Shown here in pieces: positions 800-61,800 of a DNA stretch of 64,000 nucleotides. The position numbers and the translations under genes were made by a program. How positions within the stretch are numbered: the stretch's first letter is position 1; each line of letters starts with the position of its first letter. This DNA is from a virus. Taxonomy: Duplodnaviria; Caudoviricetes. The notes below the pieces were generated by a model, which saw only the letters and a program-made list of their open reading frames with translations, ran no database searches and was not told the DNA's origin. Location: the IMG/VR virus record IMGVR_UViG_3300029982_000009. The stretch is one strand, 5' to 3'.

Positions 800-1000
800 T
801 AGGTTGTTGAAAACAAAGGCCCGATTTCACGAATATGACGCCGTATGGCCCTTTAAGGGGGCTAGACGTGGCTGGGTATGGCTAAAATAGCAGGGGCATA
901 TTGGGGCGATTTAAGTCCTTTGTTTTCAAGGGATCAGTTTTTTCTGGGTTTTCCCCATTCTTCTCTTGCATTCGATACCGAGATTTGTTATACTATATTT
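800..1000 (+). repeat. promoter-linked ~200 bp intergenic module, copy 1
   Basis: TTGAAAACAAAGG (807-819) ... AAGTCCTTTGTTTTCAA (913-929) ... TTGCAT-N17-TATACT; similar to 46335-46540 and 61590-61800. Confidence 0.85.
966..994 (+). promoter_or_regulatory. sigma70-type early promoter
   Basis: TTGCAT (966-971), 17 nt, TATACT (989-994). Confidence 0.8.
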
Positions 1001-1020
1001 GTTGGTAAGGAGAGTAAAAC

Positions 1021-1197
1021 ATGGCTGCTACCTGCAAACGCAAAGACGACGATTTTCATATGTATTCGATTCCCGAGTTTCTCGTGGGTGAGTTTGACAA
1101 ACTGCTAGAAATCGCGCAAAATGCGCCATTTATGTCTTCGACTAAATGGGACGCGGAAGATCTGTTAAATGAAAAATTTAGCAAATACAGGATCTAG
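1021..1197 (+). CDS. hypothetical protein (58 aa, not in ORF track)
   Basis: AAGGAG RBS, ATG 1021, MAATCKRKDDDFHMYSIPEF...KYRI, TAG 1195-1197. Confidence 0.7.
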   Translation: MAATCKRKDDDFHMYSIPEFLVGEFDKLLEIAQNAPFMSSTKWDAEDLLNEKFSKYRI

Positions 1198-1200
1198 ATA

Positions 1201-1229
1201 TTGCAATCGGATTCAGAATTTGCTATAAT
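1201..1229 (+). promoter_or_regulatory. sigma70-type early promoter
   Basis: TTGCAA-N17-TATAAT with TG extension, followed by TATTTCAGTGAGG. Confidence 0.8.
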
Positions 1230-1249
1230 TATTTCAGTGAGGGAAACGA

Positions 1250-1552
1250 ATGAGCATTGCAACTACGATTTTTGAACAACTCGGTGGTAATCGATTTGTG
1301 GGAATGACCGGTGCGAGAAATTTTATCTCGCGTGGAAATTCCCTGACTTTCAAAATTACTAAGGCTTGCAACAAAATCACGCATGTTGAAATTGAACTCA
1401 CTCACTCGGATACTTATCGGATGGTGATGTATAATTGCCGTCATACGAAAAATGGTTTCAAGCAACAAATTGTTCGGGATATTTCTCCGGTCTACGCCGG
1501 CCAACTGCAAGGTATTTTTACAGAAGAAACTGGGCTCTACACAAGGCTGTAA
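1250..1552 (+). CDS. conserved phage hypothetical protein
   Basis: IFEQLGGNRFVGMTGA ... F...TGLYTRL pattern recurrent in phage early proteins; RBS and promoter upstream. Confidence 0.75.
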   Translation: MSIATTIFEQLGGNRFVGMTGARNFISRGNSLTFKITKACNKITHVEIELTHSDTYRMVMYNCRHTKNGFKQQIVRDISPVYAGQLQGIFTEETGLYTRL

Positions 1553-1566
1553 TTGAAAGGAAATCG

Positions 1567-1860
1567 ATGACACTGCAAGAATATGTAAATAACGGATCCG
1601 GTAGTTTTGCCACGATGTTCACCCCGGGAGATTTCATTATTTTTACCACCGGTGCTGGTATGTATCTAGGTGACAATAACACCTGGAATTTTCACCCGGG
1701 TCCGCTGCGCCAGGAATCGGATTGGGATGCCGCAACTAATATTGTCGGCGAAAAACTTTCTGCCATGATGAAGGCTGTTCTGCAAATGCACGTTATGGCG
1801 GTTAATCGCTATCCTTACGTAAATGAAGTTTTCGTTACGCCAAAAAGATCGACAATTTGA
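1567..1860 (+). CDS. hypothetical protein
   Basis: ORF-track 1435..1860 trimmed to ATG 1567 preceded by AAGGA. Confidence 0.65.
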   Translation: MTLQEYVNNGSGSFATMFTPGDFIIFTTGAGMYLGDNNTWNFHPGPLRQESDWDAATNIVGEKLSAMMKAVLQMHVMAVNRYPYVNEVFVTPKRSTI

Positions 1861-1868
1861 AACCTGTT

Positions 1869-2024
1869 ATGTCGCGCTCGGCCGGTAAACTGAGTATTAA
1901 ATTGCTAACACTCGTATGTACCTTTGTATTGTGCGCCTCTCTCATTTTAGTGCCGGATCAGATAAGCCATAGAACTATCTGCTTTATGCTGGCGATGGTA
2001 ATTTTTGTTCAAACCAACTTTTGA
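1869..2024 (+). CDS. small membrane protein (51 aa, not in ORF track)
   Basis: MSRSAGKLSIKLLTLVCTFVLCASLILV...FMLAMVIFVQTNF, two hydrophobic segments. Confidence 0.5.
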   Translation: MSRSAGKLSIKLLTLVCTFVLCASLILVPDQISHRTICFMLAMVIFVQTNF

Positions 2025-2053
2025 TTGACAACCACTAGTTAACCTGATACACT
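2025..2053 (+). promoter_or_regulatory. sigma70-type early promoter
   Basis: TTGACA-N17-TACACT. Confidence 0.75.
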
Positions 2054-2074
2054 GTAATTGAAAGGGAAATCATT

Positions 2075-2254
2075 ATGAAGAAGTCGAATTTGGTAGTTGT
2101 TGCAAAGAGCGAGTTTGAAAAGGCAAAGCAAACCGAAATTACTGTGGGTGAAGCCCACGCATTGTATGGAACCGGCGCGCATATTCTAATGCGGCCAGAC
2201 GGTACTATTAATTACCGAGATCCGGATTCAGACCGCGCAATTTTGTTCGATTAA
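2075..2254 (+). CDS. hypothetical protein (59 aa, not in ORF track)
   Basis: AAGGGA RBS, MKKSNLVVVAKSEFEK...ILFD. Confidence 0.65.
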   Translation: MKKSNLVVVAKSEFEKAKQTEITVGEAHALYGTGAHILMRPDGTINYRDPDSDRAILFD

Positions 2255-2274
2255 TTATTTTCTGGGAGCGTGCA

Positions 2275-3003
2275 ATGAGTGATACTACCCTAATTTCGTG
2301 CAATATTATCTGGGCAGCGGCGGTTGCTGCCCAGAGAATTAACGGGGCATATGTCAAACGGCATCTTAGTCTTACCATGTATGATCCTTATAACTGGGGT
2401 AAACTCGATCCAGATAATAGCAATAAATTAACAAATATCGCATTAATGCGGATTTTTATAAAATCTGGCATGACGGATGTGTCCGAGGATGATTTTGAAC
2501 AAGGAAAAATTATTCGTGATTATTTTTGCTCGTTAATTCATCTGGTGTTTTCAGATAATGCCGGTAAGTTTATTCGAGCTGCGATCACGGCCGCTACACT
2601 CACTGAGATTCCATTGGGAGATAAAACATTAGCCTTAATCGCGTCTTTGCCGAATATGTATTATGCTCGTATGGAGCAGGAATCTAATGAACGAGCTTAC
2701 GATGAGTTACTCGAAAAAAGTGTGCCGTTAAGCGTTTTATTTCCTGATCAGCTTACAAATAAGCTCCGAATCAAAATTGCTATAATGCAGCCGGTTGTGG
2801 GTTGTTCTTGTTCTTTTATTAAGGAAAGTGATATTACAGCAACGGTTACGGCTGATAACAGCCAATATTCACTTGTAAAATTTTGGGCAAATCCGCACAA
2901 CTGGGTAATCGGCGGGGAGTATGATATTTGTTGGTTTGGAAATAGCCAGTTAGACGGTAAGATAAGCAGGCTTTTGTCTGTCGTTCAGAAAGGTACGCTG
3001 TGA
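2275..3003 (+). CDS. conserved jumbo-phage hypothetical protein
   Basis: 242 aa ORF, GGGAG RBS, AAAVAAQRING.YVK N-terminal motif. Confidence 0.75.
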   Translation: MSDTTLISCNIIWAAAVAAQRINGAYVKRHLSLTMYDPYNWGKLDPDNSNKLTNIALMRIFIKSGMTDVSEDDFEQGKIIRDYFCSLIHLVFSDNAGKFIRAAITAATLTEIPLGDKTLALIASLPNMYYARMEQESNERAYDELLEKSVPLSVLFPDQLTNKLRIKIAIMQPVVGCSCSFIKESDITATVTADNSQYSLVKFWANPHNWVIGGEYDICWFGNSQLDGKISRLLSVVQKGTL

Positions 3004-3740
3004 GGAAAAAATTTGTTACTACCTCGATTGCACTTCAGATGCCTGTGAAAGAATTATTTGCATTAATGGATAAGGATTCGACCGAGGGTCAAACCCATAA
3101 AAATTGGTGTAAAATTTTCGATATCGACGGCATAAATTATGGTGGAAAATTACGTTCCATCAGATTGCAATGTATTAAAAGAAGTCCCGTTTGTTGTGAA
3201 TGTGGGCTCGTTGCGACGGATGCTAGTCTAGAAACCAACAAAACAAATCTTCCGAATGGATACCATTTCAATGTGTATTCTGCGAACGGAATTTTGTTTA
3301 CTATGGATCACATTTTTCCAGCATCATTGGGAGGGCCATCTGCTCTGGGTAATTTACAGACAATGTGCTCAACTTGCAACGGTAAGAAAAAGAACGATTT
3401 AGATTTCGGAAGGATTTTCACTATTCCGGAAAAGGAAATTAAGACAATATGCAGCAACATAAATCGCCAGCCACAAACAATCCCCACATTGCTGGGGCTG
3501 TTACTCTCACCATCGTTCAAGGAGAATCGGGAAGCGGTAAGAGCACTTGGGCGCGTGAGTATATCGACCAACACAGAGAAAGAAAAATTGTGCGGATTAA
3601 TCGAGATGATATTCGATCAATGTTACATTCATCCGATACCTCGTTGGAAAAAGATGTTGCTGCCGTTGAAGAGCTTCAAATTCGACATTTTTTATCTAAT
3701 GGCTATTCGGTTTTGCTGGACAATACCCATCTTTCTTTAA
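3000..3740 (+). CDS. HNH endonuclease
   Basis: CCEC ... TMDHIFP.S.GG.S..GNLQTMC..CN..K HNH signature; 3' part overlaps the next gene. Confidence 0.8.
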   Translation: MRKKFVTTSIALQMPVKELFALMDKDSTEGQTHKNWCKIFDIDGINYGGKLRSIRLQCIKRSPVCCECGLVATDASLETNKTNLPNGYHFNVYSANGILFTMDHIFPASLGGPSALGNLQTMCSTCNGKKKNDLDFGRIFTIPEKEIKTICSNINRQPQTIPTLLGLLLSPSFKENREAVRALGRVSISTNTEKEKLCGLIEMIFDQCYIHPIPRWKKMLLPLKSFKFDIFYLMAIRFCWTIPIFL

Positions 3741-16222: not shown

Positions 16223-19200
16223 GAAATCCTCAAATTAAGATTGTTTAGACTAGTTACGACAGAGATATTTTTTACTGTAGCCGCTGATATAAAAATTTCA
16301 TATGGGTTGCAGACAATTTGCTCTAACGCACCATACGAAAGATTTCCTGCATTTGGAACTAGATGAACCGCATTAATAATATTGGTCATATTCGACAAAA
16401 TATAGTTAGATAGTTGTGCCCAGAAAAATGTTTGGCCAAAATTAAAATTACCAATTGTAAAAAAATTATTTACAAGAGTAATAATTTGGCTTGCAATTTC
16501 GCCGGCACCCACTGCACTATTTGGGTTTGCTACGGCCACAAATGTTGCCTGAACCGAGGGGTCGGCTTTATCACCAAAAAGTGGAACAAACTGAGCCGAA
16601 TTAAAAATTAATTCATCAGATACCATTTTGTAATTATTAAGATCATTAAAATCGTTTGATAGCGTCTCGGTTGTTGGTGGTGTTGGTAATGCTATTTGTC
16701 CCGTTTGATCTGTTATGTATTGTTGATATGCGGTAGCATAACTTGATTCGAGACAATACATATCTATAATGTTCGACGGACTAGGATCTATTCTACGATT
16801 ATCAGACGCATTATGCTGATATTGAAATTTTAAATTTTGTCGTCCTACATAATACGAATATGTTAAAGTACTTCCTGGCTGATTAAGTGTTGTTTTAGTT
16901 GCTAAACTCCCAACCCTTGATATCTGATAAAATTGAAGAGTTGAGAGGCAAAAAATAATTGCTCCATTTGCATACGAGTATAAATTATTATTTATGTCCG
17001 TGGGTAAATTAACAACAACTACCTGATTAGCTCCAGAGCTTATTAATTTTGTAGTAGATTGCGAGTTATCGGTTACTAAAAATATAAAATTACTATCAGA
17101 CACACAATCTTTAAAGAAAAAAGGGTCAGTGGGAATACCAGTATATGCTAGCCCTGCATATTGAATTTGCACCCTACTATTATCAATTAAACCATTAATT
17201 TCATCAACGACTGCGTAAACATCTACTGATATATCGTTCGGTAATCCGAGGTTAACGGCAACGCCGGGCGCACTGTTAGTTTCTAAGATTATTATCTGAT
17301 CGGTTAGTGTAGACGCGTTGGTTGGATCGTATACCTTAGCATTAGGATCAAAATAAAAGGTTGTTTGCTGTTCAGATCCAAAATAATAGGCATTTGATTG
17401 TTGATATACAGTAAAAGTTGTAGTACTCGTTGGTACGAACGCCAATAGCCAATCGTTTGTATTAATCGCCGCTGGACTCATCGGAGCAATAAACTGGGAA
17501 CCATAAATTGCTGGGCTAAAATTTAATGGTAATGTGTTATCTAAACTCCATGAAAGAGTGTATGAATTATATGATAGAGCTACCGCATTTCCATTAGTTA
17601 AATAGGTGATTAATTTTTGAATTAAATTACTCGGTAATACGGGAATGTATAATGGTAAAATGCCGGTTAATAATGCCCCGGTAGGAATTTTTTGCGATAG
17701 TAAAATTGCTCCACTACCGTCAACATTTATCCCATTCATTGAGATCGAGTTTCCGATGCCAGCCGAATCAGCAGAAGTAATAGCCGCATAAATTATAGAT
17801 TTCTGATTCAATAATTGGGAAGACGAAGTGATTAGATTATTGTTAATGTCAAAAAATTGACCAGTGGGAGCGGTAAATTGTAATAATGATCCAATTTTCA
17901 GAATTGATGAATGCGAGACGGGCGCGAAACGTCCATCGTTTATTGTAATTAGATTGCCGGTGGCAACATCACTTATCCATCCAGAGCTAGAAGTATTGTC
18001 AGTTAACACTAAATTCCAGGCGGTCGCTGCCGAGGGAATAGTGATTGGATAATTACTGGGATTAAGGACAAACGACAGCGTATTATTAGACGATATTAGC
18101 GAGGTTATCTGACTTTCTACAATTGTTGCTAAATTATTTTGATTTGCATAGGTATAATTATTTGTTATAACTGACGGATCTGTATATATAAAACCATCGT
18201 CACAAAAAACATTTGTGCTACTAAATTTTCCAGTTGGATCAATTACATCGAGATATCGACTTACTCCGCTAGCCGTCCTATTGATTGCTTTTAATTGTAA
18301 AATATTGCTATATTTTGTAAAGGGAAAAGAGTTATAATCTTGACCATTTACCATTCTATTTTGCGAGTAGAAACTTTGGGGTGCCTTTAATTTAATATTT
18401 GCTAACGATTCGGTACCCGCACTATTACCTACGGTGTATTGTAAACTCGCATTGATTGTTAATAGCTGTGTACGATTTGTCTTACTCGTATAGTTAATAG
18501 GAAAAGATAAATTGGACATTTCTGAAGGATTAATTCTATATGTTAGCCCATTAGATGAACGAGTAAAGCATATAAAATTACCTTGAGGAATTGCTCCAAA
18601 AACACCGTCACCGAAGATTAAAGTAATAGCATCGTTGATTTGATTAGTTACAGAAAAAATTGTTTGCTGCTGCGATGGAAGATTATTGAAAGCTGTATTT
18701 TCTCCGTAAATTGTTTGTACCTGAGTCCATTCTGTAATTGTTCCGTCTGTATTAAGTTGATATAGCCATACATCCGAGTTATTAACGCCGGTTTGGGATA
18801 AATTGATAGATGTATTAGGTAACCCAGATGCAATACTAAAAGTTTGCGACGACAATGTTCCCTGTTTAAAATAGAGAAAATACCCCGTATTTTGGCTAGC
18901 AAATCCTAGTCCATCATTTTCATAAAGAAGATTAAAAGTAGAAGTGTGTTCGGGGTCGATTTCATATATAAATGTTTCGCCAACAGAAGTAGGGTTAACT
19001 ATTTCAAAATTTGTACTTGAACTATTAATAGATGCTGTGAATGCATATGGCGGCGCCTGTCCTGCCGACGAAGACAAGCCGTATTCTGAATAATTAATTC
19101 CATTAATTACATTTGTATTACCAGGATTGCCAATGGTTTGAGAACTAATTAAAACTGCATTGATAATAGTATTCCACTGATCTTGCCAGTTTCTATTAGT

Positions 19201-19641
19201 GCGATCATTCCAATTAATTGTTATTCCATTAAGATTATTTCCTAGCGAATCATATACATTATCGTTAACAGAAAGACTATTTATTTTTAGATAGCCATTT
19301 GCAGCTAAATTTCGACTCGGAATATAATTAACAAGATTAGCCAGATAATTAATAGAATTTCTACTTTGCGCAGTAGGAAGAAAGTTTTCTCTCGCATTCA
19401 TATCATAACGAAAGGACATACTTTGTCCCATAAATGCAATTAGATCAATTAATGCCGTGAACTCGCTGCTTTCAATATAATCATTGAAATTTTCTGGATT
19501 TTTTAGTTGCAAATAATTTATGAACGATTTTCGTAGTGTGGAAAAATCGTACGACGCGAGATTCGGGCTGCCCATAGAAGTATAGAAAGCCTGCCAATCT
19601 TGAATGCCAAAAGCCGTTGTTGCTTGCAGTGATGTTCCCAT
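16219..19641 (-). CDS. baseplate wedge subunit (gp6-like)
   Basis: YDFSTLRKSFINYL...FNDYIESSEF.ALIDLIAF.GQ...FR.DMNARENFL.TA N-terminus; ES...IK..AP..F.SQNRMV...DY. Confidence 0.85.
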   Translation of the reverse strand: MGTSLQATTAFGIQDWQAFYTSMGSPNLASYDFSTLRKSFINYLQLKNPENFNDYIESSEFTALIDLIAFMGQSMSFRYDMNARENFLPTAQSRNSINYLANLVNYIPSRNLAANGYLKINSLSVNDNVYDSLGNNLNGITINWNDRTNRNWQDQWNTIINAVLISSQTIGNPGNTNVINGINYSEYGLSSSAGQAPPYAFTASINSSSTNFEIVNPTSVGETFIYEIDPEHTSTFNLLYENDGLGFASQNTGYFLYFKQGTLSSQTFSIASGLPNTSINLSQTGVNNSDVWLYQLNTDGTITEWTQVQTIYGENTAFNNLPSQQQTIFSVTNQINDAITLIFGDGVFGAIPQGNFICFTRSSNGLTYRINPSEMSNLSFPINYTSKTNRTQLLTINASLQYTVGNSAGTESLANIKLKAPQSFYSQNRMVNGQDYNSFPFTKYSNILQLKAINRTASGVSRYLDVIDPTGKFSSTNVFCDDGFIYTDPSVITNNYTYANQNNLATIVESQITSLISSNNTLSFVLNPSNYPITIPSAATAWNLVLTDNTSSSGWISDVATGNLITINDGRFAPVSHSSILKIGSLLQFTAPTGQFFDINNNLITSSSQLLNQKSIIYAAITSADSAGIGNSISMNGINVDGSGAILLSQKIPTGALLTGILPLYIPVLPSNLIQKLITYLTNGNAVALSYNSYTLSWSLDNTLPLNFSPAIYGSQFIAPMSPAAINTNDWLLAFVPTSTTTFTVYQQSNAYYFGSEQQTTFYFDPNAKVYDPTNASTLTDQIIILETNSAPGVAVNLGLPNDISVDVYAVVDEINGLIDNSRVQIQYAGLAYTGIPTDPFFFKDCVSDSNFIFLVTDNSQSTTKLISSGANQVVVVNLPTDINNNLYSYANGAIIFCLSTLQFYQISRVGSLATKTTLNQPGSTLTYSYYVGRQNLKFQYQHNASDNRRIDPSPSNIIDMYCLESSYATAYQQYITDQTGQIALPTPPTTETLSNDFNDLNNYKMVSDELIFNSAQFVPLFGDKADPSVQATFVAVANPNSAVGAGEIASQIITLVNNFFTIGNFNFGQTFFWAQLSNYILSNMTNIINAVHLVPNAGNLSYGALEQIVCNPYEIFISAATVKNISVVTSLNNLNLRIS

Positions 19642-31025: not shown

Positions 31026-31682
31026 TTACCAAATATGCTTAATAGCCCAATGAATAAATCCGTGTGGGTTATTCACATCTGTAAGTAATTGATTTGTTTG
31101 CCCTGTGATTTTTACACTATTATCTAATAAACTATTAATGTGCTCGGGCATTTGTTTTATGTTATTATCAGTTTCGAACGAATCAAGATCAGATAAATTT
31201 TTAGTGACCTGAGTAAGTACTGGATTGAAATTTTTTACGGTACCATTTGTTGTTATTAAAAAATCATTTACATTTGTTGATATAGAATCGGTATTTTTAG
31301 AAATTTGGGGAACCGCAGCATTAACTAACGTTATTGTGTCATTTGCAGACGCAGTTAATGAATTAATATTATCTAACATAGTATTGATTTTTTTAGTAGA
31401 AACAGGGGCGACATTGTCGAAATATGTTTTTTCACTAAGCGCAGCATTATTAAGATTGTAAAGTGTAGTATGCAGATCCCACAAATCTTGATTAAGCACT
31501 ACTATCGGGCCAGAAGGAGAATTTATAGTTGAAAGGAGCGTATCTATTTTTTTAGTTAATTGATATTCTTCTATTGGGGTTGCTATGAAAAATATTCCCA
31601 TTGATATTGCGCAGAAGGTAATAGCTAGCCAACCTAAAATTTTTGAACATGTAAGAATTTTATTTTCCATATTATTCCTCAA
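31026..31682 (-). CDS. membrane-anchored coiled-coil protein (spanin- or MlaD-like)
   Basis: N-terminal TM helix followed by heptad-like Asn/Thr-rich segment. Confidence 0.5.
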   Translation of the reverse strand: MRNNMENKILTCSKILGWLAITFCAISMGIFFIATPIEEYQLTKKIDTLLSTINSPSGPIVVLNQDLWDLHTTLYNLNNAALSEKTYFDNVAPVSTKKINTMLDNINSLTASANDTITLVNAAVPQISKNTDSISTNVNDFLITTNGTVKNFNPVLTQVTKNLSDLDSFETDNNIKQMPEHINSLLDNSVKITGQTNQLLTDVNNPHGFIHWAIKHIW

Positions 31683-32271: not shown

Positions 32272-32829
32272 CTAAATATGTTTTTTAATGTCATAAGGAA
32301 TGCCCGCCGCGTGCATCAAGGTTTGAATCAATGGATCAGTTGATACATAACTTTCAGTTTTAATTCCCGCCGCCTGTTTTAAATTATCAATTGGCCTATT
32401 AATTTGTTCTCTGTAGTTACGCGGGCTTAACGGAACAAATAATTTTAAATTCTTTTCGGATAATGGATGATATTCGTCATCCATATATTTAAATTTCCAT
32501 TCATTTTGTTTTAGTTGTGACGCAGCCGATAAGTCTGAAATTAGTTGGAATATCTGGGTAATGAGGCGTCTTCGTCGTAAAATTTCTACATAAACTAAAT
32601 AGCTACCGGGTTTAATTTCTGATGCAGAAATGTCGGCATCCAAAATAAAATCGTAACCATTTTCAAAAAAACCAATTACATCAAGAGCTGCTCGCTTATC
32701 ATTAACCAAGAAACTTATAACGGCAATTTCATCATCTTTACCAATTTTAGAGCAAAATTCGTCGATGTGGATCGAGGGCTCGAGCACGAATTTTAAATCA
32801 GAGATTTCAAAAGATTCTAATACTTTCAT
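32272..32829 (-). CDS. conserved jumbo-phage hypothetical protein
   Basis: IHIDEF.SKIG.DDEI.V.SF...FFE.GYDFILDAD.S motif; TATAAATA and GGGAG upstream of ATG 32829. Confidence 0.75.
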   Translation of the reverse strand: MKVLESFEISDLKFVLEPSIHIDEFCSKIGKDDEIAVISFLVNDKRAALDVIGFFENGYDFILDADISASEIKPGSYLVYVEILRRRRLITQIFQLISDLSAASQLKQNEWKFKYMDDEYHPLSEKNLKLFVPLSPRNYREQINRPIDNLKQAAGIKTESYVSTDPLIQTLMHAAGIPYDIKKHI

Positions 32830-32862
32830 TTCACTCCCATGCAACTATATTTATAGTCTAAG

Positions 32863-33414
32863 CTATTGGGCAGCCTGATTTTGTTCTTCGGCCGCTTTCT
32901 GTGCGCCCGCGTGAGTATCAAGATCTTCTGAGTAGGCTTTCTCAATATTAGTTGAGTCGATATCATCCATATCGATTTCAGAATCCATAATTTCTTCGCT
33001 TCCTTGGGTAATGTCTTTCATTAGGAATCGTGGCATATTGATAGTTATTAGCCAAACAAGCATTTTTTTAAGTTTTGCTTTTTTAATTTTTGGACGAAAA
33101 TCATCGGCGTCTTCAATTTTTACAGGATATACAAGCCATGCTTTTCTATACCCAACTTTAACTCCATATGGTAATAATCTAGAGGCGCCGGATGGGTCCG
33201 GCATTTTGGATAACGGTGATGAAAATGTACATTGGACTCGGTATGCAGCAATTTCGGGGCCCGCTACTAACTCTAGTGTCTTCCAATTATGAAAGGCATA
33301 TAACCCATTTTCATCAATAACTCGTTCAAATTCTCGAAGAATAGACATAGCGCTTGCACTTATTGAGACTTGCCTAATATTATCGAGAATTTCGCTTATT
33401 TTAATATTTGCCAT
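32863..33414 (-). CDS. conserved jumbo-phage hypothetical protein
   Basis: L.EFERV.DE.GLYAF.NW...ELV.GP...MPDP.GA.RL motif; GATAAATA upstream. Confidence 0.75.
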   Translation of the reverse strand: MANIKISEILDNIRQVSISASAMSILREFERVIDENGLYAFHNWKTLELVAGPEIAAYRVQCTFSSPLSKMPDPSGASRLLPYGVKVGYRKAWLVYPVKIEDADDFRPKIKKAKLKKMLVWLITINMPRFLMKDITQGSEEIMDSEIDMDDIDSTNIEKAYSEDLDTHAGAQKAAEEQNQAAQ

Positions 33415-33555
33415 TGTTATCCTTCACGCATATTTATCAATGAATATCCCACGAACTTAGTTCGCATACAAGTATTTAGCATTTTTAAAGGAATAATTTG
33501 CATTGAAATGCTGCCGGTAAATACTTGGCAGGGTAATTTAGGGGAGACACTTCAT

Positions 33556-34308
33556 ATGTCGAGAACCAAAAAGGTACGCTCCAACAACGAGTTTTCAGAA
33601 TCAACTAAGAAAAACAACCCAGATACCGCTCATTATACAATTAAAACAGGAATTAAAAAGGCTGTTCAAATTATCCCACGCAATATTCACCAAGAAGAAT
33701 ATCTCGAGTATTTATTAAACCCAGAAAAAATGATTGTAATAGTACAAGGTCCAGCCGGCACTGGAAAAACAGTTATGGCGATGCTTGCTGCAATTAAGGC
33801 ATTTAGTGAAAAAAAAGTAAATAAAATTATTTTATGCCGTCCTTCAGTTGGAACCGATGATGAAAATCTCGGATTTCTACCGGGTGATATTAATGAAAAA
33901 TTAGCGCCGTGGCTTCAGGCATTATTTGATGTTCTTTTAGAGTATTTTTCTGCTAAAGAATTGGCAACAATGATTGAAAATAAACGGATCGAATGTTTAC
34001 CATTGATGTATGTGCGCGGACGAAATATTTCATCGTTCGTAATTTTAGATGAATCTCAAAATTGTTCTAAAAAACAAATTCTTGCTTTAGGTACTAGATT
34101 GTGTGAAGGTTCCAAATTAGTATTAACGGGAGATAATGATCAATCAGATAAACGTAGCGGAGATAATGGATTAAAATATTTTTCAGAGTCACTTAAAAAA
34201 TACGGTAGAAGTGAGTTTATTGCCAGTATTGAATTTTCGGAAAACGATATTGAAAGGCACCCTGTTGTAAAAGAAGTAATCGACATATTTAGAAAAGGGG
34301 AAGAATAA
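33556..34308 (+). CDS. phoH: PhoH-like ATPase
   Basis: GPAGTGKT, RPSV, GFLPG, RGR, LDESQN, GD..QSD, RHP motifs; start trimmed to ATG 33556 after GGGGAG. Confidence 0.93.
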   Translation: MSRTKKVRSNNEFSESTKKNNPDTAHYTIKTGIKKAVQIIPRNIHQEEYLEYLLNPEKMIVIVQGPAGTGKTVMAMLAAIKAFSEKKVNKIILCRPSVGTDDENLGFLPGDINEKLAPWLQALFDVLLEYFSAKELATMIENKRIECLPLMYVRGRNISSFVILDESQNCSKKQILALGTRLCEGSKLVLTGDNDQSDKRSGDNGLKYFSESLKKYGRSEFIASIEFSENDIERHPVVKEVIDIFRKGEE

Positions 34309-34316
34309 AATAAGAT

Positions 34317-34346
34317 AAAAACGGTGGCCTGACGGCCACCGTTTTT
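34317..34346. terminator. bidirectional terminator
   Basis: AAAAACGGTGGCC-TGAC-GGCCACCGTTTTT. Confidence 0.8.
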
Positions 34347-34908
34347 ATGATTCCAATATTGGATCAAAGCATTGCCGACATCGCGCCTCGTAAAGAGTAT
34401 CTGCCCCAACTAATACTCGACTAGTATCAGTGCTTAATCGTTGCGAATGAATTGCGGGTTCCCCGCATTTTACGCATACGGCTGATAATTTAATAACTTC
34501 GTCAGCAATAGCCATCAATTCTGGTATAGGATGAAATGGTTCCCCAGCAAAAGTTGTATCGAGTCCAGCGATAATAACTCTTTTTCCGGCACGTGCTAGT
34601 TCAATAGAAAATGATATTAGTTCATCCCCAAAAAATTGCGCTTCGTCAATTCCTATTACATCAAAATTATTAAGACATATTCCGGCAATAGTTTTTAGCT
34701 CGCCAGTAGTTTGAACTGTTTTCGCGGAGAAAGTTAATTTGCTGTGTGATGCAATATCGGTTACATTATATCTATTATCGATATTTGGTTTGAAACATTG
34801 TATTCGTTGTTTTGCAAAGGTAGCTCGGCGCAGCCGCCTTATTAATTCTTCGGATTTTCCTGAGAACATTGGCCCAGTTATTACTTCTATCCTACCGCTT
34901 TTCATCAT
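34345..34908 (-). CDS. tdk: thymidine kinase
   Basis: GPMFSGKSEELIRR, IDEAQF, AGLD..F.GEPF, C..C, YEARCRQC. Confidence 0.95.
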   Translation of the reverse strand: MMKSGRIEVITGPMFSGKSEELIRRLRRATFAKQRIQCFKPNIDNRYNVTDIASHSKLTFSAKTVQTTGELKTIAGICLNNFDVIGIDEAQFFGDELISFSIELARAGKRVIIAGLDTTFAGEPFHPIPELMAIADEVIKLSAVCVKCGEPAIHSQRLSTDTSRVLVGADTLYEARCRQCFDPILES

Positions 34909-35377
34909 GATCCTTTGATTCCGATATTAGTGTTTCTATTTGTTGCATTTGCTCGTTAAAAAATATTAATCCCCACTGAAATACTTTTTTTCTATCGGCA
35001 ATAGCCATAATACCCATTATGCGATCTTCTAAAATTTCATCTATAAAACCACACGAATTGGTTTCTTTAAACTGATCCGCGATAAAACCTTTTTTATCAA
35101 TATAACTGTGCGTTAACACTGCATTTGGGTGGGTATGAATAGTTCCAAAATATTTTAAATTTGTGCCCGCTTCTATTTCTTCCTCCGCACTCTGATAGGA
35201 AATTCCACGGGGGTTAGTTCTGTTAACCGATAAGTCGTCTAAGGCATAGATATAGAGCGTATCCATAACTTGCTTACCTAGTATGGCAGATATGCATTCG
35301 TTTGGATACGCTCTTAGCGCTTTTTGTTTAAATTCATTAACGATATCGTTATGAATAACAACTTGAGTTATGAACAA
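34892..35377 (-). CDS. JAB/MPN (JAMM) metalloprotease-like protein
   Basis: AYPNEC...GTIHTHPN....HS..D = E...HxH...S..D. Confidence 0.75.
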   Translation of the reverse strand: MFITQVVIHNDIVNEFKQKALRAYPNECISAILGKQVMDTLYIYALDDLSVNRTNPRGISYQSAEEEIEAGTNLKYFGTIHTHPNAVLTHSYIDKKGFIADQFKETNSCGFIDEILEDRIMGIMAIADRKKVFQWGLIFFNEQMQQIETLISESKDHDEKR

Positions 35378-44896: not shown

Positions 44897-45105
44897 TCTG
44901 ATAGACATCGTAAAAATTGCCATTCGATCCTTTCAATTGTATCTTCCCATGCAAATTCTTCGTCACACCCCCAACTTGACAGCGTCGCGCCGGAATTATT
45001 TTGAAGTATTCTCCAGATCGGCTTGCCTGTGACGGGTGAACGGCCAGATACCGCAATCGCGTCCGGATAAACTGCCCGGACGCGATTTATTAGTACGCTT
45101 TTCAT
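44893..45105 (-). CDS. small paralogue family A
   Basis: RVRAVYPDA...EEFAWEDT...LRCLSE. Confidence 0.75.
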   Translation of the reverse strand: MKSVLINRVRAVYPDAIAVSGRSPVTGKPIWRILQNNSGATLSSWGCDEEFAWEDTIERIEWQFLRCLSE

Positions 45106-46283
45106 TATTTGATCGCTTTCAGCAGGATAGTATCTGCATTCATGCTTTCCCGCAATGAAGTTTCTACCGCCTTGATATTATCGAACCACTTGAACGCTCC
45201 AACCTTGCTCATACTGTTAAACTGCTTTAGTTGTTCGGCGATCTTGCGCAGCGTTTTCGACGTGCTCTTGGTCGGGTCCATGTTAAGAATTTTGTTGCCC
45301 TTAACGTCAAGTGTTGAATTCGGAAGAGCAACATAGCGTCCAATTTTTCTCGTCTTGGTATTTAGAACCCATAATACGGTTGACTTGAGAATTTGAACAG
45401 GGTCAATGCTAGTGAGATGCATTTCCGGCTGAACCTGAAGGAAGCGCAACTTGCTAACAACCTTATCAGGAGTTGTCATCTTCTTCTTGCGGGACTTGCG
45501 CGTGCTCTTCTTGACGATACCGAAACCGGTAATGTCAGTGATGGCTGTTTCCCACCAGGCAACCGATGCTTTCAATTCGCGCTTGCCAAGATGCGCATAC
45601 GCTTCGTTGATTTCATCATTCTTGCCAGCAAGTGCAATCTTGAATTCCGAAAGATACACATTTGCAAACTCAATCAGATCCTTGGTACGATTACCAGGGG
45701 CAGTCGTTTTCGGATCATGCAAAATCTGCATGATATTTCGTTCCGACTTCTGATAATTCGATTCAACGAACTGGTCGAACGCGGCGTTGATCTCACCCTT
45801 CACCCGACGCAATTTTGCGTCAATGAAGTCTTGAATATTCGGCTTCGCGACCCCGTCAACTGCCGGAACTGAAACTTTCATATTTTCAAGGCATTTGCGC
45901 AGGTCACGAACAATAAACTTGCTTTCACGGAATCGTATCTTGAATCCCATCTGAATCATGCGGATCATCCAAGCCGATGCGTGCGGAATTTGCAACTTGC
46001 TCTTTTTTAATGCCTGAACTAATTCTGGCATATTGTTTGAAACGGCCAAGGCTTTCAGAGCAAGCTCGTGACCATGATCGTCATCCTGGGTTGCTGTATA
46101 CCAGGCAAATGCTGCGAGCAGTTGGCGATCATATTCATCCTGGGACCACTGCGCCTGCTCTTCAACGGAAGGCCAATAGGGCTCGTCAAGGCCGATATAC
46201 TTCGCCCCTTCTCCCTTGAAACGGAGTATCGGGGTTGGCTTTACATGCTCTGGCTTGAATGATCTTTTTACTGTCTTCGTCAT
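45105..46283 (-). CDS. conserved T4-like phage hypothetical protein
   Basis: KL.F......L.SIDP..I......LWV.NTKTRK.GRYVA...L.VKG..I......S..KTLRK C-terminal motif. Confidence 0.8.
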   Translation of the reverse strand: MTKTVKRSFKPEHVKPTPILRFKGEGAKYIGLDEPYWPSVEEQAQWSQDEYDRQLLAAFAWYTATQDDDHGHELALKALAVSNNMPELVQALKKSKLQIPHASAWMIRMIQMGFKIRFRESKFIVRDLRKCLENMKVSVPAVDGVAKPNIQDFIDAKLRRVKGEINAAFDQFVESNYQKSERNIMQILHDPKTTAPGNRTKDLIEFANVYLSEFKIALAGKNDEINEAYAHLGKRELKASVAWWETAITDITGFGIVKKSTRKSRKKKMTTPDKVVSKLRFLQVQPEMHLTSIDPVQILKSTVLWVLNTKTRKIGRYVALPNSTLDVKGNKILNMDPTKSTSKTLRKIAEQLKQFNSMSKVGAFKWFDNIKAVETSLRESMNADTILLKAIK

Positions 46284-46334: not shown

Positions 46335-46540
46335 TTTAAGTTGTTGATTTTAAAGGGCCGATATCGTAAATATGGCGCCGTATGGCCCCAATATGACCCC
46401 AGGAGTAGCTGAGTACCATCATTATAGTGGGGTCATATTGGGGCGATATAAGTCCTTTGTTTTCAATGGCGCATTTTTCTTGGTTTTTAGGCTGATTTCG
46501 CTTGCATTCGGTACCGGAGTTTGCTATACTTATTTTAGTG
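46335..46540 (+). repeat. promoter-linked ~200 bp intergenic module, copy 2
   Basis: same boxes as copy 1; internal 17 bp perfect inverted repeat 46385-46401/46428-46444; TTGCAT (46502)-N17-TATACT (46525). Confidence 0.85.
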
Positions 46541-46574
46541 AATGGAACAGAGCTAACGAAGCAGAAGTTGGCTG

Positions 46575-46603
46575 TTGACAAGAATCAGGAACTTTGCTAC
46601 ACT
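46575..46603 (+). promoter_or_regulatory. sigma70-type early promoter
   Basis: TTGACA-N17-TACACT. Confidence 0.8.
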
Positions 46604-46631
46604 TAACAAGTAGTGAAAGGGGTAACACCGC

Positions 46632-47669
46632 ATGGCAACAGTGAAAATCATTCAGGGTTCGTATCGCAACCAGGAAATCAAAAACCAAACGTTTACGCTG
46701 ATTAATGGGTACGTGGAAACGCCGAATTCGAAGCATGTTACGGTCGAAGGAACAAAACTTTGTGGCCGTCCGACAGCTCGAATTCGCGTGAAGAGCCAGA
46801 AGGATTTTGTCATTGCCGGCACGGTTGAAACGGTTGATGATCAGATTTCTGTTGAAGAGGAATCCTCTGAGCCGGAAGTTGTTGAAACAGATGCAGCCGT
46901 ACTTGCGCGTATCAGTGATAGGTTTCAGATTTTAACTGAACTGACCCAGGGTGCTCTCACTGGAGATATTCGCGCATTGTTTGTAACCGGCGCCCCGGGA
47001 GTTGGAAAGACTTTCGGTGTTGAAAAGACGCTGCAAGATGCGGGGTTGGTTGAAATTTTTTCCGATCTTCCTCCTCGGTATGAAGTTATTTCTGGTGCAA
47101 TGTCTGCGGTCGGTATGTATATGAAGTTGTACGAATTCCGTGACGATAACAATGTTCTCGTCATTGACGATTGCGATTCGGTTTTTACCGACGAACTTTG
47201 CTTGAACCTGCTGAAAGCTGCATTGGATACGAGCAAGCGCCGCATGATTCACTGGAACGTGGATTCGGTTTCACTTCGGAAGGGTGATTGCCCTAACCAA
47301 TTTGAGTTCAAGGGTTCTATTATCTTCATTTCGAACATTAACTTCAAGAAGGTTCGTTCTGAGCGTATGCGTAACCATCTCGAGGCCCTCATGAGCCGTT
47401 CGCATTTTCTTGATCTTACTGTTCATACGGATCGCGAAAAGTTGCTCAGAATTGAAGACCTGGTTACGAATCATAAGATGCTTTCCCAGTTCAAACTGTC
47501 CGATAAAATGAGCGCAAAGGTTATGAAGTTCGTGCGTGATAACGCTTCGAAATTTAACGAGCTTAGCCTGCGCACTGTCATTAAATTGGCCGGTCTCGCC
47601 AGGACGTTCGACGAGAATGACAAGTGGATGCGAGTTGCTGAACTTTCTATGATGGGAAACCAATTTTAA
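46632..47669 (+). CDS. AAA-family ATPase (conserved T4-like phage family)
   Basis: GAPGVGKT Walker A, VLVIDDCD Walker B, LNLLKAALD, F.F.G.IIFISN, AL.SR. Confidence 0.88.
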   Translation: MATVKIIQGSYRNQEIKNQTFTLINGYVETPNSKHVTVEGTKLCGRPTARIRVKSQKDFVIAGTVETVDDQISVEEESSEPEVVETDAAVLARISDRFQILTELTQGALTGDIRALFVTGAPGVGKTFGVEKTLQDAGLVEIFSDLPPRYEVISGAMSAVGMYMKLYEFRDDNNVLVIDDCDSVFTDELCLNLLKAALDTSKRRMIHWNVDSVSLRKGDCPNQFEFKGSIIFISNINFKKVRSERMRNHLEALMSRSHFLDLTVHTDREKLLRIEDLVTNHKMLSQFKLSDKMSAKVMKFVRDNASKFNELSLRTVIKLAGLARTFDENDKWMRVAELSMMGNQF

Positions 47670-58597: not shown

Positions 58598-58609
58598 GTA
58601 AATACTAAT

Positions 58610-60112
58610 ATGCGATACTTTGAATTGTTTGAATCGAGTCGAGGAATTTTTGTAAGAACCCAGGAAGCCGCAGCGGGCAAAACTATTACGGTTTCAAATA
58701 AGGAAGGAGAAGTTTTAACGGCAATCGGAAATTATCTTCTTCCCGAGACTGGATTGTTTTATGCAAATGATGATGTTTCCAGCCTTCCGGCTAAAGCAAG
58801 ATTGCTGCCTTTAGGCGAGCAGAAAAAATTATTAAAGACCGGGCAGCAAAAAGTAATGGATGCATTGGAACAATATAAAATCACCGCAAAAATTTTACCC
58901 GCCAATTGGCATATTACGAATACTGCGGGAAGAGCGGCAATGATTACTCTCTGGACAAATAGCCGTAATCAAAAAGTTGCGTTTGTAAAACTATTTGTAT
59001 CCAAGAGTCCGAGTGCAATCCCATTTTATTGGAGCAATAGCAATTTCGCTCGAGATACCGGGTTTGCATTATCAAATGATGCTCAACAAAAATCTGAATT
59101 AAATCTTAAACCATTAACCGTTGTTGGGGTCGATGCGAGATTTACAATTGACGATCTATTGGAACAAATTGACGAAAATATTATAACCCATACCGAACTT
59201 CCTTTAGAAGTAATTGAGCAGGTGCCCAAACTTCTTAAGAATATTCAAGTCGGGTTTTCAAGTCCTATTGCAAATGCAGCCCAGTATATTAGTTCATATG
59301 AAGTTGATTTAGGTGAAACCGGGGCTCCGATTGCATTAATGACCGGTCATTTTATATCCGGCGCATACCAACAAGTTGAGGAACAATTATTGAAGCCAAT
59401 GGGATCAAGCTGGGCAAAGATTAAAACCTGCTCTTTTCCGATGGCAGGCAACGAACAGTTGGTAGATAGTTATTTAAACATTGACGCTGATACAAAATTA
59501 GGTATTAGTTCAAAAAATTCTAAAGGCGGCGCCGCTGCTAGCATTACAAGTTTATCCTCGGTAATTGAAAAAAATCCTGAAAGATTTAAAGATCTTGTTA
59601 AAAAGAAAAAATACAAATATCTATTTAATGTAATTAATCTTTTAAAGAATAAATCCGCAATTGATGGTCCACTTGAATTAGGTGTTATGTATGGAATTAT
59701 TGACGCCGCTGATTTGATTAAAATTAAGGCGGCCATTGATGATCCCAATCTTGTTAAAACCGACGTAACTAAAAAGCTGCAAAAATTGTTGGCCAATAAA
59801 ATTTATAACCCAGTTACCACAAGTCCTAATTATACTGTCGGGTTGCATCTTCTTACGGTAGTTGCTCATTTAGTAACTGCTCACCTTAATGAGCAAGAAG
59901 ATTTAGTTACCGAATTTTTCAAAGCTATCTTAGCTAGGTCAAATATGATTCAGGTAATGACCAAAATAAGTAAGACCGGAACCGGGGCAGCATTCACAGA
60001 TTTCAATGTTATCTGGCCACCAGTATTTCAGGGAAAGGTCCAATTTCAGTCCCAAAAAGCGTATTCAGCGAGTGCAAGGCCAAACGGACGAATATGTTTT
60101 AAAATTCACTAA
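58610..60112 (+). CDS. hypothetical late protein, possible PD-(D/E)xK nuclease C-terminal domain
   Basis: E..AP.AL...LVDSY......GISSK..GG motif spacing; TAAATA-N5-ATG. Confidence 0.5.
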   Translation: MRYFELFESSRGIFVRTQEAAAGKTITVSNKEGEVLTAIGNYLLPETGLFYANDDVSSLPAKARLLPLGEQKKLLKTGQQKVMDALEQYKITAKILPANWHITNTAGRAAMITLWTNSRNQKVAFVKLFVSKSPSAIPFYWSNSNFARDTGFALSNDAQQKSELNLKPLTVVGVDARFTIDDLLEQIDENIITHTELPLEVIEQVPKLLKNIQVGFSSPIANAAQYISSYEVDLGETGAPIALMTGHFISGAYQQVEEQLLKPMGSSWAKIKTCSFPMAGNEQLVDSYLNIDADTKLGISSKNSKGGAAASITSLSSVIEKNPERFKDLVKKKKYKYLFNVINLLKNKSAIDGPLELGVMYGIIDAADLIKIKAAIDDPNLVKTDVTKKLQKLLANKIYNPVTTSPNYTVGLHLLTVVAHLVTAHLNEQEDLVTEFFKAILARSNMIQVMTKISKTGTGAAFTDFNVIWPPVFQGKVQFQSQKAYSASARPNGRICFKIH

Positions 60113-60147
60113 CGAAAAGCCCACCTATCTAGGTGGGCTTTTCGTTA
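60110..60147. terminator. bidirectional terminator
   Basis: 18 bp arms TAACGAAAAGCCCACCTA-TC-TAGGTGGGCTTTTCGTTA. Confidence 0.8.
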
Positions 60148-60231
60148 ACTGGTTGTTCAATATTATCAATTTTCTATTTTAATTTTCAAATCGTCAGGTC
60201 ATATTTTCCTCATTCCAAAATTAAAACTTTT

Positions 60232-60663
60232 TTATCCAATAGGAAATAAATGTGGGATAATCGGCTGCTTCGGACGATTACGTTGCAAAAATAAATTATG
60301 AGTAGCAAACGGTGTAACAATTGAGGCATCCGTAGCTAACCACACTCTAGCGAGCCTACGATGCCCATGCCGATTTAGATATCGTGCGGCAAAATAATCA
60401 ACGCCGACCATTCCGCCTTCAAATCCTATCAGTGCCGCAGTATGATTTGTAATCTTGCTGGGCAAAAAATCTTCACGGTCGTGATCGTTTCCCGTTAGCA
60501 TGTATCGAGTAGAAAATGTATCTAGCCCTCGAGCAGTAATGTCAGCCCCAAGTAAAATCTTTTCAGATCGATCAAGATTTGGTGTGGGGACCGATGGCAG
60601 TTCTTGCGCTGCAAGTGACATAGCCGCTAGCGAAAGTGCCAGAATACCAATGTGTGCTCTCAT
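60232..60663 (-). CDS. secreted/membrane protein with signal peptide
   Basis: MRAHIGILALSLAAMSLAA.ELPS.P...R.LD..ST motif. Confidence 0.7.
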   Translation of the reverse strand: MRAHIGILALSLAAMSLAAQELPSVPTPNLDRSEKILLGADITARGLDTFSTRYMLTGNDHDREDFLPSKITNHTAALIGFEGGMVGVDYFAARYLNRHGHRRLARVWLATDASIVTPFATHNLFLQRNRPKQPIIPHLFPIG

Positions 60664-60664
60664 A

Positions 60665-60886
60665 TTACCCCTTCTTTTTCGGCGTCGAATCAAACTGGAT
60701 TTCTGCGATTCGAATTTGCGGTTCGTTTGCACTATTAACGAACGCAGTGATTTTCAGCCACTTATTGTCCGTGAATACAATAACATTTTCACAATCTCCC
60801 GATCGAACAATTTCCAGGTGCCTAACGTTCGAGGTAATAAATGTGGTGATTGAATGTGGTCCTTCTGCAATAATCGGATCTGTCAT
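60665..60886 (-). CDS. hypothetical protein
   Basis: AAGGA RBS, 73 aa. Confidence 0.65.
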   Translation of the reverse strand: MTDPIIAEGPHSITTFITSNVRHLEIVRSGDCENVIVFTDNKWLKITAFVNSANEPQIRIAEIQFDSTPKKKG

Positions 60887-60901
60887 ATGTTCCTTTCTGA
60901 G

Positions 60902-61225
60902 TTAGCAAAGGTAATTCGCACCGTACAAATTAACTGCGGTTCCCCAGCCGAAATTGGCATCAAAAATATTTCCGCGCACATGCTTTGCCGCAGCGGCCCA
61001 GCTAGCGGCCCTGTAGATGTCGCCGGCTTGCTTGTCAATGAAGCAATAAACGCTTCTGCTGCCTTGGTCACTTTTAATGACCTTAAAAAACTTCCCGCCA
61101 TTAGAAATTTCGATAATGGACGGCGTGAGATTCTTGAAGTTTTCGGCATAATATTTGTTCGTTTCGTCTTGAATCTTGGCAACAAAACCAACCACCTGAG
61201 CAGCAACCTTTTCGTTAGCTTTCAT
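60902..61225 (-). CDS. conserved phage hypothetical protein
   Basis: RSVYCFIDK..GDIYRAASW.A.AK.VRGNI motif; start trimmed to ATG 61225 below promoter. Confidence 0.75.
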   Translation of the reverse strand: MKANEKVAAQVVGFVAKIQDETNKYYAENFKNLTPSIIEISNGGKFFKVIKSDQGSRSVYCFIDKQAGDIYRAASWAAAAKHVRGNIFDANFGWGTAVNLYGANYLC

Positions 61226-61244
61226 CCATTCCCTCACTGAAATA

Positions 61245-61273
61245 AGTGTATCAAAAATCAGATCACTTGTCAA
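61245..61273 (-). promoter_or_regulatory. sigma70-type early promoter
   Basis: TTGACA-N17-TACACT then TATTTCAGTGAGG. Confidence 0.8.
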
Positions 61274-61280
61274 CCGAAAA

Positions 61281-61580
61281 TTACAATTGATTTTTATATT
61301 TCTGCTTTCCCATCCACCATTCGTCGGAAACGGAGTCATACAACGGATGACGATAATCATCCTCATCCCATTCGCCGCCGCACAAATATTCGCTTTCGGT
61401 ATTGCCCGCACGATCCGGCCCCTCGCCGTTTTCGCTATAGCCGTACGAATCAAATCCTTCGTCGTCATCGTAGCATTCAGGATTAATACCGTTACCGCGT
61501 CCTCCGCCATTTTTTGCCCACCAATTTTGATCCTTGGCATACCAACGGCTTACGGTCGGACTGTATTTTCCTACGCTCAT
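61281..61580 (-). CDS. acidic conserved phage hypothetical protein
   Basis: GKYSPTV...EGFDSYGY...DRAG..E..Y motif. Confidence 0.75.
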   Translation of the reverse strand: MSVGKYSPTVSRWYAKDQNWWAKNGGGRGNGINPECYDDDEGFDSYGYSENGEGPDRAGNTESEYLCGGEWDEDDYRHPLYDSVSDEWWMGKQKYKNQL

Positions 61581-61589
61581 ATCTTATTT

Positions 61590-61800
61590 CCTCACTGAAA
61601 TAAGTATAGCAAAGTTCGGTACCGAATGCAAGCGAAAAATGATCGGAAAACACAAAAAATGATCTGTTGAAAATAAAGGACTTATATTGCCCCAAAATGC
61701 CACCAATTTTTTCGACAATATAATGCTACTCCAGAGGCTAATTGGGGCCCTGCTGGGGTAAAATCAGGAAATCGGTCCTTTAAAATCAACACTTTACCGA
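61590..61800 (-). repeat. promoter-linked ~200 bp intergenic module, copy 3 (inverted)
   Basis: reverse complement carries the same boxes and TTGCAT (61631)-N17-TATACT (61608). Confidence 0.85.

Follow-up and report, generated by a model that had tools for sequence, protein, structure and literature searches.

Repeated Promoter and Inverted-Repeat Modules of an Uncultured T4-Type Peat Phage: A Possible Enlarged Variant of the PeSL Cassette

The 64,000-nucleotide viral DNA record IMGVR_UViG_3300029982_000009 (Duplodnaviria; Caudoviricetes), the whole of which is referred to here as the window, is a portion of the genome of a distant, uncultured T4-type phage from peat. It carries three modules that are genuine copies of one repeated regulatory cassette, a 123-bp inverted-repeat element joined to a strong early promoter. 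Both the architecture and the behaviour of the modules match those of promoter early stem-loop (PeSL) cassettes, and they are therefore read as such; this composite cassette of T4-like phages would be present as an enlarged new variant, a reading to which a probability of about 0.5 is assigned. PeSL cassettes have been described from the T4-type phages RB49/phi1, PST/T4, and nt-1/KVP40 (Arbiol et al. 2010, PMC2839356; Comeau et al. 2014, PMC4122927). By their published definition, a stem-loop immediately precedes a sigma70-like promoter whose upstream region is AT-rich, and the cassette closes with a Shine-Dalgarno (SD) sequence and an ATG; the same papers propose homogenising exchange among cassettes (PMC2839356, PMC4122927). 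An initial annotation of the window had named PeSL cassettes as a precedent and had suggested that the element belongs to no described type. PeSL cassettes are indeed the appropriate precedent, given the shared architecture and the existence of short versions with the same tail and promoter; the novelty of type does not hold, as stem-loop, AT-rich tract, sigma70-type promoter, SD, and ATG make up the published PeSL architecture.

Architecture of the Repeated Modules

The three module stretches were read directly and then aligned, with a mean column identity of 77%. Each follows the order box1, a 93-nt core, box2, a T-tract-rich spacer of 35-36 nt, TTGCAT, a second spacer of 17 nt with TGn at its end, and TATACT. 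Box1 is TTGAAAACAAAGG in copy 1 and TTGATTTTAAAGG in copies 2 and 3; box2 is AAGTCCTTT(G/A)TTTTCAA in all three. The spacing first reported was recovered, with 106 bp from the start of box1 to the start of box2 in 3/3 copies and 53, 52, and 52 bp from the start of box2 to the -35 element; the perfect 17-bp arms claimed for the core of copy 2 were also located (Table 1). When a profile built from the phage copies was run on the window it returned exactly three full copies and one 35-bp fragment. The box2 17-mer, allowing up to two mismatches, has four matches in the window against 0.11 expected from shuffles, and TTGANNNNAAAGG has seven against approximately 0.75; that the modules are a real repeat family joined to early promoters, as had been proposed, is upheld.

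The promoter TTGCAT-17-TGnTATACT/TATAAT is kept in all copies. Its -35 element fits the consensus at only 3/6 positions, and the module promoters are therefore considered to be of the extended -10 type (TGn plus TATACT). Copy 2 has a leader and no ATG after the promoter, and is therefore taken to have a degenerate cassette end. The divergent promoters said to flank copies 2 and 3 were found at both sites. A weak hint of promoter activity comes from peat metatranscriptome contigs that begin at 46537, 46557, and 46614 (depth only 2-4); 46537 and 46614 are the expected starts of the module promoter (7 nt after the copy 2 -10) and of a second promoter downstream, and the contigs are from two studies. 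Four RNA runs cover 46537-46974 only, at a depth of 2-4; the module itself lies outside this interval, so its transcription is not addressed by these data.

Relatives, Copy Number, and Exchange among Copies

The window encodes a 345-aa ATPase that is approximately 36% identical to nrdC.10 of T4-type phages; an identical nrdC.10-like protein is present on peat metagenome contigs, and window DNA occurs in many peat runs. No match to the module region was found by DNA search among 50,697 phage records, and a look-up of the nrdC.10-like protein in IMG/VR found no relative. Pattern scans of IMG/VR and JGI metagenomes yielded four relevant contigs, G001-G004; the matches listed from a single-box scan of IMG/VR were mostly chance. 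G001 and G002 are overlapping contigs of one phage (99.998% over 44.7 kb) that share only modules and promoters with the window and cover other parts of the same genome type. G003 (125 kb) and G004 (28 kb) are more distant from the window; G003 is syntenic with it through 49 orthologues of 34-89% protein identity, mostly 40-75%. The count of copies in relatives, a check named beforehand, gives at least six full modules in the window-type phage (three in the window, two in G001, and one in L185, just beyond the contig end), at least three of them additional to those first seen, and six in G003. The window-type phage also carries short or partial module forms.

Copies 1, 2, and 3 (w1, w2, and w3) have positional orthologues in G003 at 60192(-), 16570(+), and 32719(-), respectively, in which the boxes, promoter, and leader are conserved and the cores are not. 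Orthologous cores of the window and G003 are 48-53% identical, as compared to 46-49% for shuffles, whereas the cores of w1, w2, and w3 are mutually 60-68% identical against 49 +/- 4% for shuffles; since paralogous cores are alike and orthologous cores are at the level of shuffles, copies within a genome appear to be homogenised by exchange. The comparison points to concerted evolution, with the copies in one genome kept alike by recombination or gene conversion. Copy 2 and the module at G001 32669 form a mosaic pair, their variable cores being 100% identical and their flanks different. L169 (Ga0302200_10036897, 1-2954, peat) fuses window 47009-46343 (99.0%) to G001 32595-35079 (99.4%) through this shared core, connecting the downstream flank of copy 2 with the upstream flank of G001 32669; this contig could derive from a recombinant genome, or the repeat could have led to a chimeric assembly. 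Behind orthologous tRNA-Ala(cgc) genes, a full 125-bp module is present in L185 (5242-5458) and only a box2-like tail with promoter in G003 (108509-108609); a single site can therefore either carry or lack box1 and the core.

The recombination cassette offered by the initial annotation as one reading fits these observations: paralogues are closer than orthologues, an identical core lies between different flanks, one module is situated at an inversion boundary, and box1 with the core varies in presence between relatives. As to gene content and order at the modules, a different gene follows copy 1 in G003, copy 3 borders a block whose orientation differs between the window phage and G003, and the genes on either side of copy 2 are conserved. 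A general position of the modules at synteny breakpoints is not supported, as 3/3 have positional orthologues and both flanks of copy 2 are conserved; by this comparison the modules would be stable landmarks that occasionally coincide with rearrangements, rather than general breakpoints.

Predicted Hairpins, Short Forms, and Spacing

For nearly all copies, folding predicts a hairpin closed by box1 and box2. The z-scores of the folds lie between -0.3 and -6, alike on both strands, with the orthologues of copies 2 and 3 at -0.3 and -0.6. Neither of these orthologues folds better than shuffles, and the perfect 17-bp arms are therefore a lineage feature; of the core hairpin claimed for copy 2, the arms are real but do not extend beyond the lineage. 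A scan of the window with Rfam covariance models at the gathering score gave 0 matches, a tRNA scan of the window gave nothing, and for copy 2 a permissive Rfam scan yielded nothing but generic hairpin (microRNA precursor) matches far below threshold.

Two short forms in G001, situated at places equivalent to those of the modules, are canonical terminators by pattern. At 31261-31286 a 10-bp GC-rich terminator hairpin is followed by TTTGTTTTCA, 14 nt, and TTGCAT...TATAAT; at 31603 a 12-bp hairpin carries the same tail. Each of the two has a 3' arm that differs from AAGTCC and a 5' arm with compensating changes. Judged by this pattern, the box2 sequence of the short forms is plainly the arm and U-tract of a putative terminator.

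The separation of the boxes is 105-108 bp in 13/14 distinct phage copies and 117 bp, one turn more, in the other; the neighbouring spacers have changed by 10-34 nt between the two phages while this separation was kept. The gap from box2 to the -35 element is 34-36 nt in six window-type copies, 23-24 nt in six G003/G004-type copies, and 14 and 11 nt in two further copies. Four divergent promoters beside box1 have gaps of 25, 25, 25, and 26 nt with differing spacer sequences. The spacing does not vary freely, in agreement with what had been expected, and the box-to--35 gaps step by approximately 10-11 bp. Eight collapsed gap values give a phase concentration of R = 0.78-0.84 for periods of 10.5-12 bp, a value reached by only 62/20,000 random sets; the helical phasing of the gaps is suggestive only, because the events are few and partly related by descent.

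Comparison with PeSL Cassettes

The modules share with PeSL cassettes a stem-loop immediately before a sigma70-like early promoter that has an AT-rich upstream tract, an end with SD and ATG (copies 1 and 3), many copies among small early genes, and homogenised copies, some of which lie beside gene replacements, indels, or inversions; degraded "half" cassettes also exist. Unlike in PeSL cassettes, the stem-loop is a compound inverted repeat of 123 bp with a variable core of approximately 93 nt and not a short hairpin; the arms consist of a 13-17-bp motif that is kept across diverged phages and also occurs in unrelated elements; the separation of the arms and the distance from arm to -35 look constrained; and many modules lie between divergent promoters. 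The PeSL stem-loop is an effective terminator; that of the modules would be a putative one, canonical by pattern in the short forms.

Under the PeSL reading, the promoter-proximal half of the module would be the standard early-gene cassette, with phased T-tracts, an extended -10 sigma70-type promoter, a conserved SD leader, and a start codon, and the distal half would be the "stem-loop" of the cassette enlarged to the inverted-repeat element. Box2 would supply the 3' arm of the hairpin and the U-tract, with box1 as its inverted partner. Where transcription enters, namely at copy 1 and at copies behind tRNA genes, hairpin and U-tract would most likely end the upstream unit; the T-rich box, being in helical register upstream of the outward-facing promoter, may form part of a UP-like, curved upstream region. 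Exchange of sequence between copies by recombination or gene conversion would keep them alike within a genome and make them possible joints for rearrangement.

Several observations weigh against this reading. Copies 2 and 3, their orthologues, and the module at G001 60735 lie between divergent promoters, where there is nothing to terminate. In the long form a scanner finds a local hairpin of only 5 pairs with a T-run, and the closing helix of approximately 4-7 pairs beside the U-tract encloses approximately 95 nt, a form unlike that of canonical terminators; in most copies the four central nucleotides of the two boxes are unpaired, and they display no compensatory change. Retention of the 105-108 bp separation despite randomised cores is not predicted by PeSL logic, and the presence of the two-box element in unrelated contexts is a hint that it is recognised as a site and is not simply a hairpin. 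Positional conservation of 3/3 copies also means that they are not especially mobile. The PeSL reading leaves unexplained the constrained separation, the phasing of the distances to the promoters at either end, and the reappearance of the two-box element in mobile DNA of unrelated kinds; on account of these three points, a protein-bound element acting at the level of DNA stays under consideration.

Occurrence of the Box Motifs outside These Phages

The strict two-box pattern has 25 specified bases, and its chance expectation is therefore far below one. In L187 (137-6579) the two-box element is the leader of a CRISPR array, between a Cas6-RT-Cas1 fusion gene and repeat 1; its box1-type arm fits the integration host factor (IHF) consensus and ends 18 nt from the repeat. 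Spacers of this array gave no real match to the phage contigs. In a Bryobacteraceae metagenome-assembled genome (MAG) and in metagenome contigs the element lies directly behind a primase/helicase gene among TGCGCA repeats, a setting that looks like the origin of an integrative element; at L176 3023-4520 and in contigs C30 and C46 of G008, the element directly after this gene is itself rich in TGCGCA palindromes. The pattern also occurs in other phage-like contigs. Two-box matches from Leclercia and a provirus (L038, L043, L196) have no annotated relatives, and Pfam/PHROG annotation of genes beside the unrelated elements was mostly uninformative.

The 17-mer recurs in acidobacterial genomes. 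G007, an Acidobacteriaceae MAG, has 11 copies of the 17-mer with up to one mismatch in an intergenic repeat of approximately 230 nt and 20 copies (e.g., L217-L225), which lies mostly beside the 3' end of a convergent gene; in the acidobacterial G099 the 17-mer is found inside at least two families resembling miniature inverted-repeat transposable elements (MITEs) with other terminal repeats (L246-L254). These repeats of G007 and G099 have no Rfam match, and a literature search for the box sequences returned only unrelated primers. The 13-mer was rejected as a host marker, as it is over-represented relative to its reversed control in both phyla (approximately 150 vs 21 in Acidobacteriota; 49 vs 11 in Pseudomonadota) and hence unspecific; alone, it may be a common terminator tail.

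Alternative Explanations

A protein-bound architectural element is a possible, if tentative, alternative to the PeSL reading. The boxes would be docking sites for a bending or regulatory protein (host IHF-like or a phage factor), and two such sites, ten turns apart and phased to outward promoters, would be part of a nucleoprotein complex, wrapped or looped, by which the early promoters are activated, insulated, or shut off at a later stage. This would account for 13-17-mers that are invariant in paralogues, orthologues, and unrelated elements while cores drift, for the held separation of the boxes, for box-to--35 gaps falling at 11/14, 23-26, and 34-36 nt with their periodicity, for the four box1-side spacers of different sequence and near-equal length, and for the lack of compensatory changes between box centres; spacing classes follow lineages, however, so the independent events are few. 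The recurrence in a CRISPR leader beside repeat 1, behind a primase/helicase gene among iterons, and as the 17-mer in acidobacterial MITE-like repeats is in keeping with a protein site, as IHF-type proteins act at such places in other bacteria; against this, the 13-mer alone is over-represented in two phyla and resembles a generic terminator tail. The IHF consensus WATCAANNNNTTR, reported in the initial annotation on the opposite strand of box1 in copies 2 and 3, is matched there exactly and is fitted by box1 of most copies, but not by copy 1 box1 or by any box2, and it occurs in the window at chance frequency (7 found vs 7.25 expected); IHF would be a reasonable candidate from the box1 consensus, with a match that carries little information. 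Related phage contigs (G001-G004, 295 kb) contain no HU/IHF gene, and both boxes have their T-rich centre on the same strand, which is unexpected for inverted copies of one protein site. It is doubtful that the box is the recognition site of a conserved architectural protein (e.g., IHF-like, of an acidobacterial host), the phage pair acting as a phased nucleoprotein switch or insulator and the same site serving in CRISPR leaders, mobile-element origins, and MITEs of those bacteria.

Descent from a mobile element is unlikely: a non-autonomous 123-bp inverted-repeat unit of MITE type, common to bacteria and the mobile elements they carry, would have been inserted upstream of early promoters and retained there. 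The appearance of a MITE is given by inverted repeats of 13-30 bp at the ends, an interior that varies, a length of 113-134 bp, multi-copy intergenic 17-mer families in two Acidobacteriota genomes, the position of the G007 repeat, and the presence or absence of box1 and core at the tRNA-Ala site. No phage copy displays a target-site duplication, though, box2 always faces the promoter at a lineage-fixed distance, no transposase partner is known, and the 17-mer of G099 is internal to MITEs with other ends; a neutral relic would also not be expected to keep its ends in orthologues while the interior is randomised. A transcribed, structured RNA of approximately 125 nt, such as a small RNA or an RNase III-type processing site with box1/box2 as closing helix and a U-rich internal loop, is quite improbable. 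The closing helix is widely predicted, window copies fold somewhat better in sense (-43/-60/-38 vs -33/-45/-37 kcal/mol), the unpaired U-rich centre is conserved even in unrelated elements, and copies directly after tRNA genes would be co-transcribed; the core structure, however, is not conserved, as the z-scores on both strands and of the copy 2 and 3 orthologues indicate, and Rfam offers nothing beyond generic hairpins. Copies 2 and 3 have no promoter upstream of box1, and although a promoter-like TTGAnn-17/18-(T/G)AAAAT overlaps box1 in the G003 lineage, a transcript started there would leave box1 out of the RNA. Very little weight is given to a replication origin in the style of T4 oriF/oriG, in which a promoter and an easily unwound region form a primer R-loop: several copies per genome, AT-rich T-tracts adjoining promoters, and the two-box element directly behind a primase/helicase gene in an unrelated mobile element would suit it, but the promoters are of early type with no MotA-box-like sequence at -30 and hence no MotA-type middle promoter, the phage copies have no iterons, the GC skew does not turn at the modules, and the copies are too many and tied to ordinary early genes.

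Feature Coordinates and Additional Observations

Table 1. Positions of the three modules and adjoining signals in the window.
Feature	Position	Strand	Remarks
Intrinsic terminator	742-771	+	canonical, 13-bp stem and T-run; ends the upstream transcription unit just before copy 1
Copy 1 box1, TTGAAAACAAAGG	807-819	+	exact inverted complement of the box2 13-mer
Copy 1 variable core, 93 nt	820-912	+	
Copy 1 box2, AAGTCCTTTGTTTTCAA	913-929	+	
Copy 1 promoter part	930-1023	+	36-nt spacer with phased T-tracts; leader contains SD
Copy 1 TTGCAT	966-971	+	
Copy 1 TGT-TATACT	986-994	+	TATACT at 989-994
Copy 1 ORF (open reading frame), 58 aa	1021-1197	+	ATG at 1021
Copy 2 box1, TTGATTTTAAAGG	46344-46356	+	opposite strand matches WATCAANNNNTTR at 46337-46349
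Copy 2 core, 93 nt	46357-46449	+	perfect 17-bp inverted arms 46385-46401 / 46428-46444
Copy 2 box2	46450-46466	+	
Copy 2 promoter part	46467-46537	+	35-nt T-tract spacer; TGC-TATACT ends at 46530
Copy 2 TTGCAT; TATACT	46502-46507; 46525-46530	+	
Copy 3 box1, TTGATTTTAAAGG	61789-61777	-	+ strand matches WATCAANNNNTTR at 61784-61796
Copy 3 core, 93 nt	61684-61776	-	
Copy 3 box2, AAGTCCTTTATTTTCAA	61683-61667	-	
Copy 3 promoter part	61570-61666	-	35-nt T-tract spacer, SD
Copy 3 TTGCAT; TATACT	61631-61626; 61608-61603	-	
Copy 3 ORF, 99 aa	61281-61580	-	ATG at 61580
Box2-region fragment, 35 bp	61921-61955	+	17-mer with one mismatch at 61938-61954; within ORF 61866-62114
Divergent early promoter TTGACA-17-TATATT	46318-46290	-	-35 is 25 nt from copy 2 box1; drives gene 45105-46283
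Divergent early promoter TTGACA-17-TATAAT (12/12)	61815-61843	+	-35 is 25 nt from copy 3 box1
Second promoter TTGACA-17-TACACT	46575-46603	+	serves nrdC.10-like gene 46632-47669

The 35-bp fragment sits in frame in a small ORF behind a divergent promoter and looks like a cassette remnant captured in coding sequence. The gene at 45105-46283 has only 6 nt between its -10 element and ATG, and its G003 orthologue has the same layout (TTGACA-17-TATGAT-6-ATG), which suggests an early mRNA with little or no leader. The 17-nt promoter spacer contains a 12-bp palindrome, TTCGGTACCGAA or a close variant of it, at window 46507-46518, in copy 3 (61626-61603 region), and in G001 32669; paralogues and the copy 2 orthologue of G003 retain this palindrome, which might serve the promoter as an internal operator. 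In G004 (18856-19504; L170, L165, L175) the gene just downstream of the module contains approximately 10 tandem 66-nt repeats, the copy number of which varies among metagenome contigs.

Three other interpretations were discarded. Gene callers place a 68-aa ORF over copy 2; copy 1 has this frame closed, copy 3 lacks it, and the lineages differ there by a 1-nt indel, so that a protein-coding function is not conserved. A sigma54 reading of TGGCNC-N4-TGGC in the conserved 5' part has a spacing one base short, and likeness of box2 to boxA/Nus sites is a mere resemblance, its location upstream of promoters being unsuited.

Related Systems and Significance

Correia (CREE/NEMIS) elements of Neisseria are multi-copy intergenic elements of approximately 100-150 bp on the bacterial chromosome, with inverted-repeat ends, outward promoters, an IHF site, transcript hairpins, and TA target duplications. 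The phage modules resemble them in size class, inverted-repeat bounds, and outward promoters, but are without sequence similarity or duplication and are fused to a fixed promoter cassette. In UP-element or curved-DNA regions and IHF-dependent promoters of enterobacteria, T-tract-rich DNA lies upstream of the -35 element and acts in a manner that varies with helical phase; in the G003 lineage, the 24-nt spacer likewise places WWTWTTTT at approximately -54 to -47. UP elements are short and degenerate, whereas the phage box is a 17-mer that is shared by different taxa and has an inverted partner at a distance of 106 bp.

Gene shuffling in T4-type phages is attributed to PeSL cassettes, which have been described only as short hairpin versions from cultured phages. 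If the PeSL reading is correct, a soil phage lineage without a cultured relative displays an enlarged form of this cassette, with clear concerted evolution, conserved end motifs, and constrained spacing. The occurrence of the motif both in these phages and in acidobacterial genomes and small repeats is a lead to the host, not proof. The modules provide a defined sequence with which transcription-unit boundaries, promoter strength, and possible reading by a host protein may be studied.

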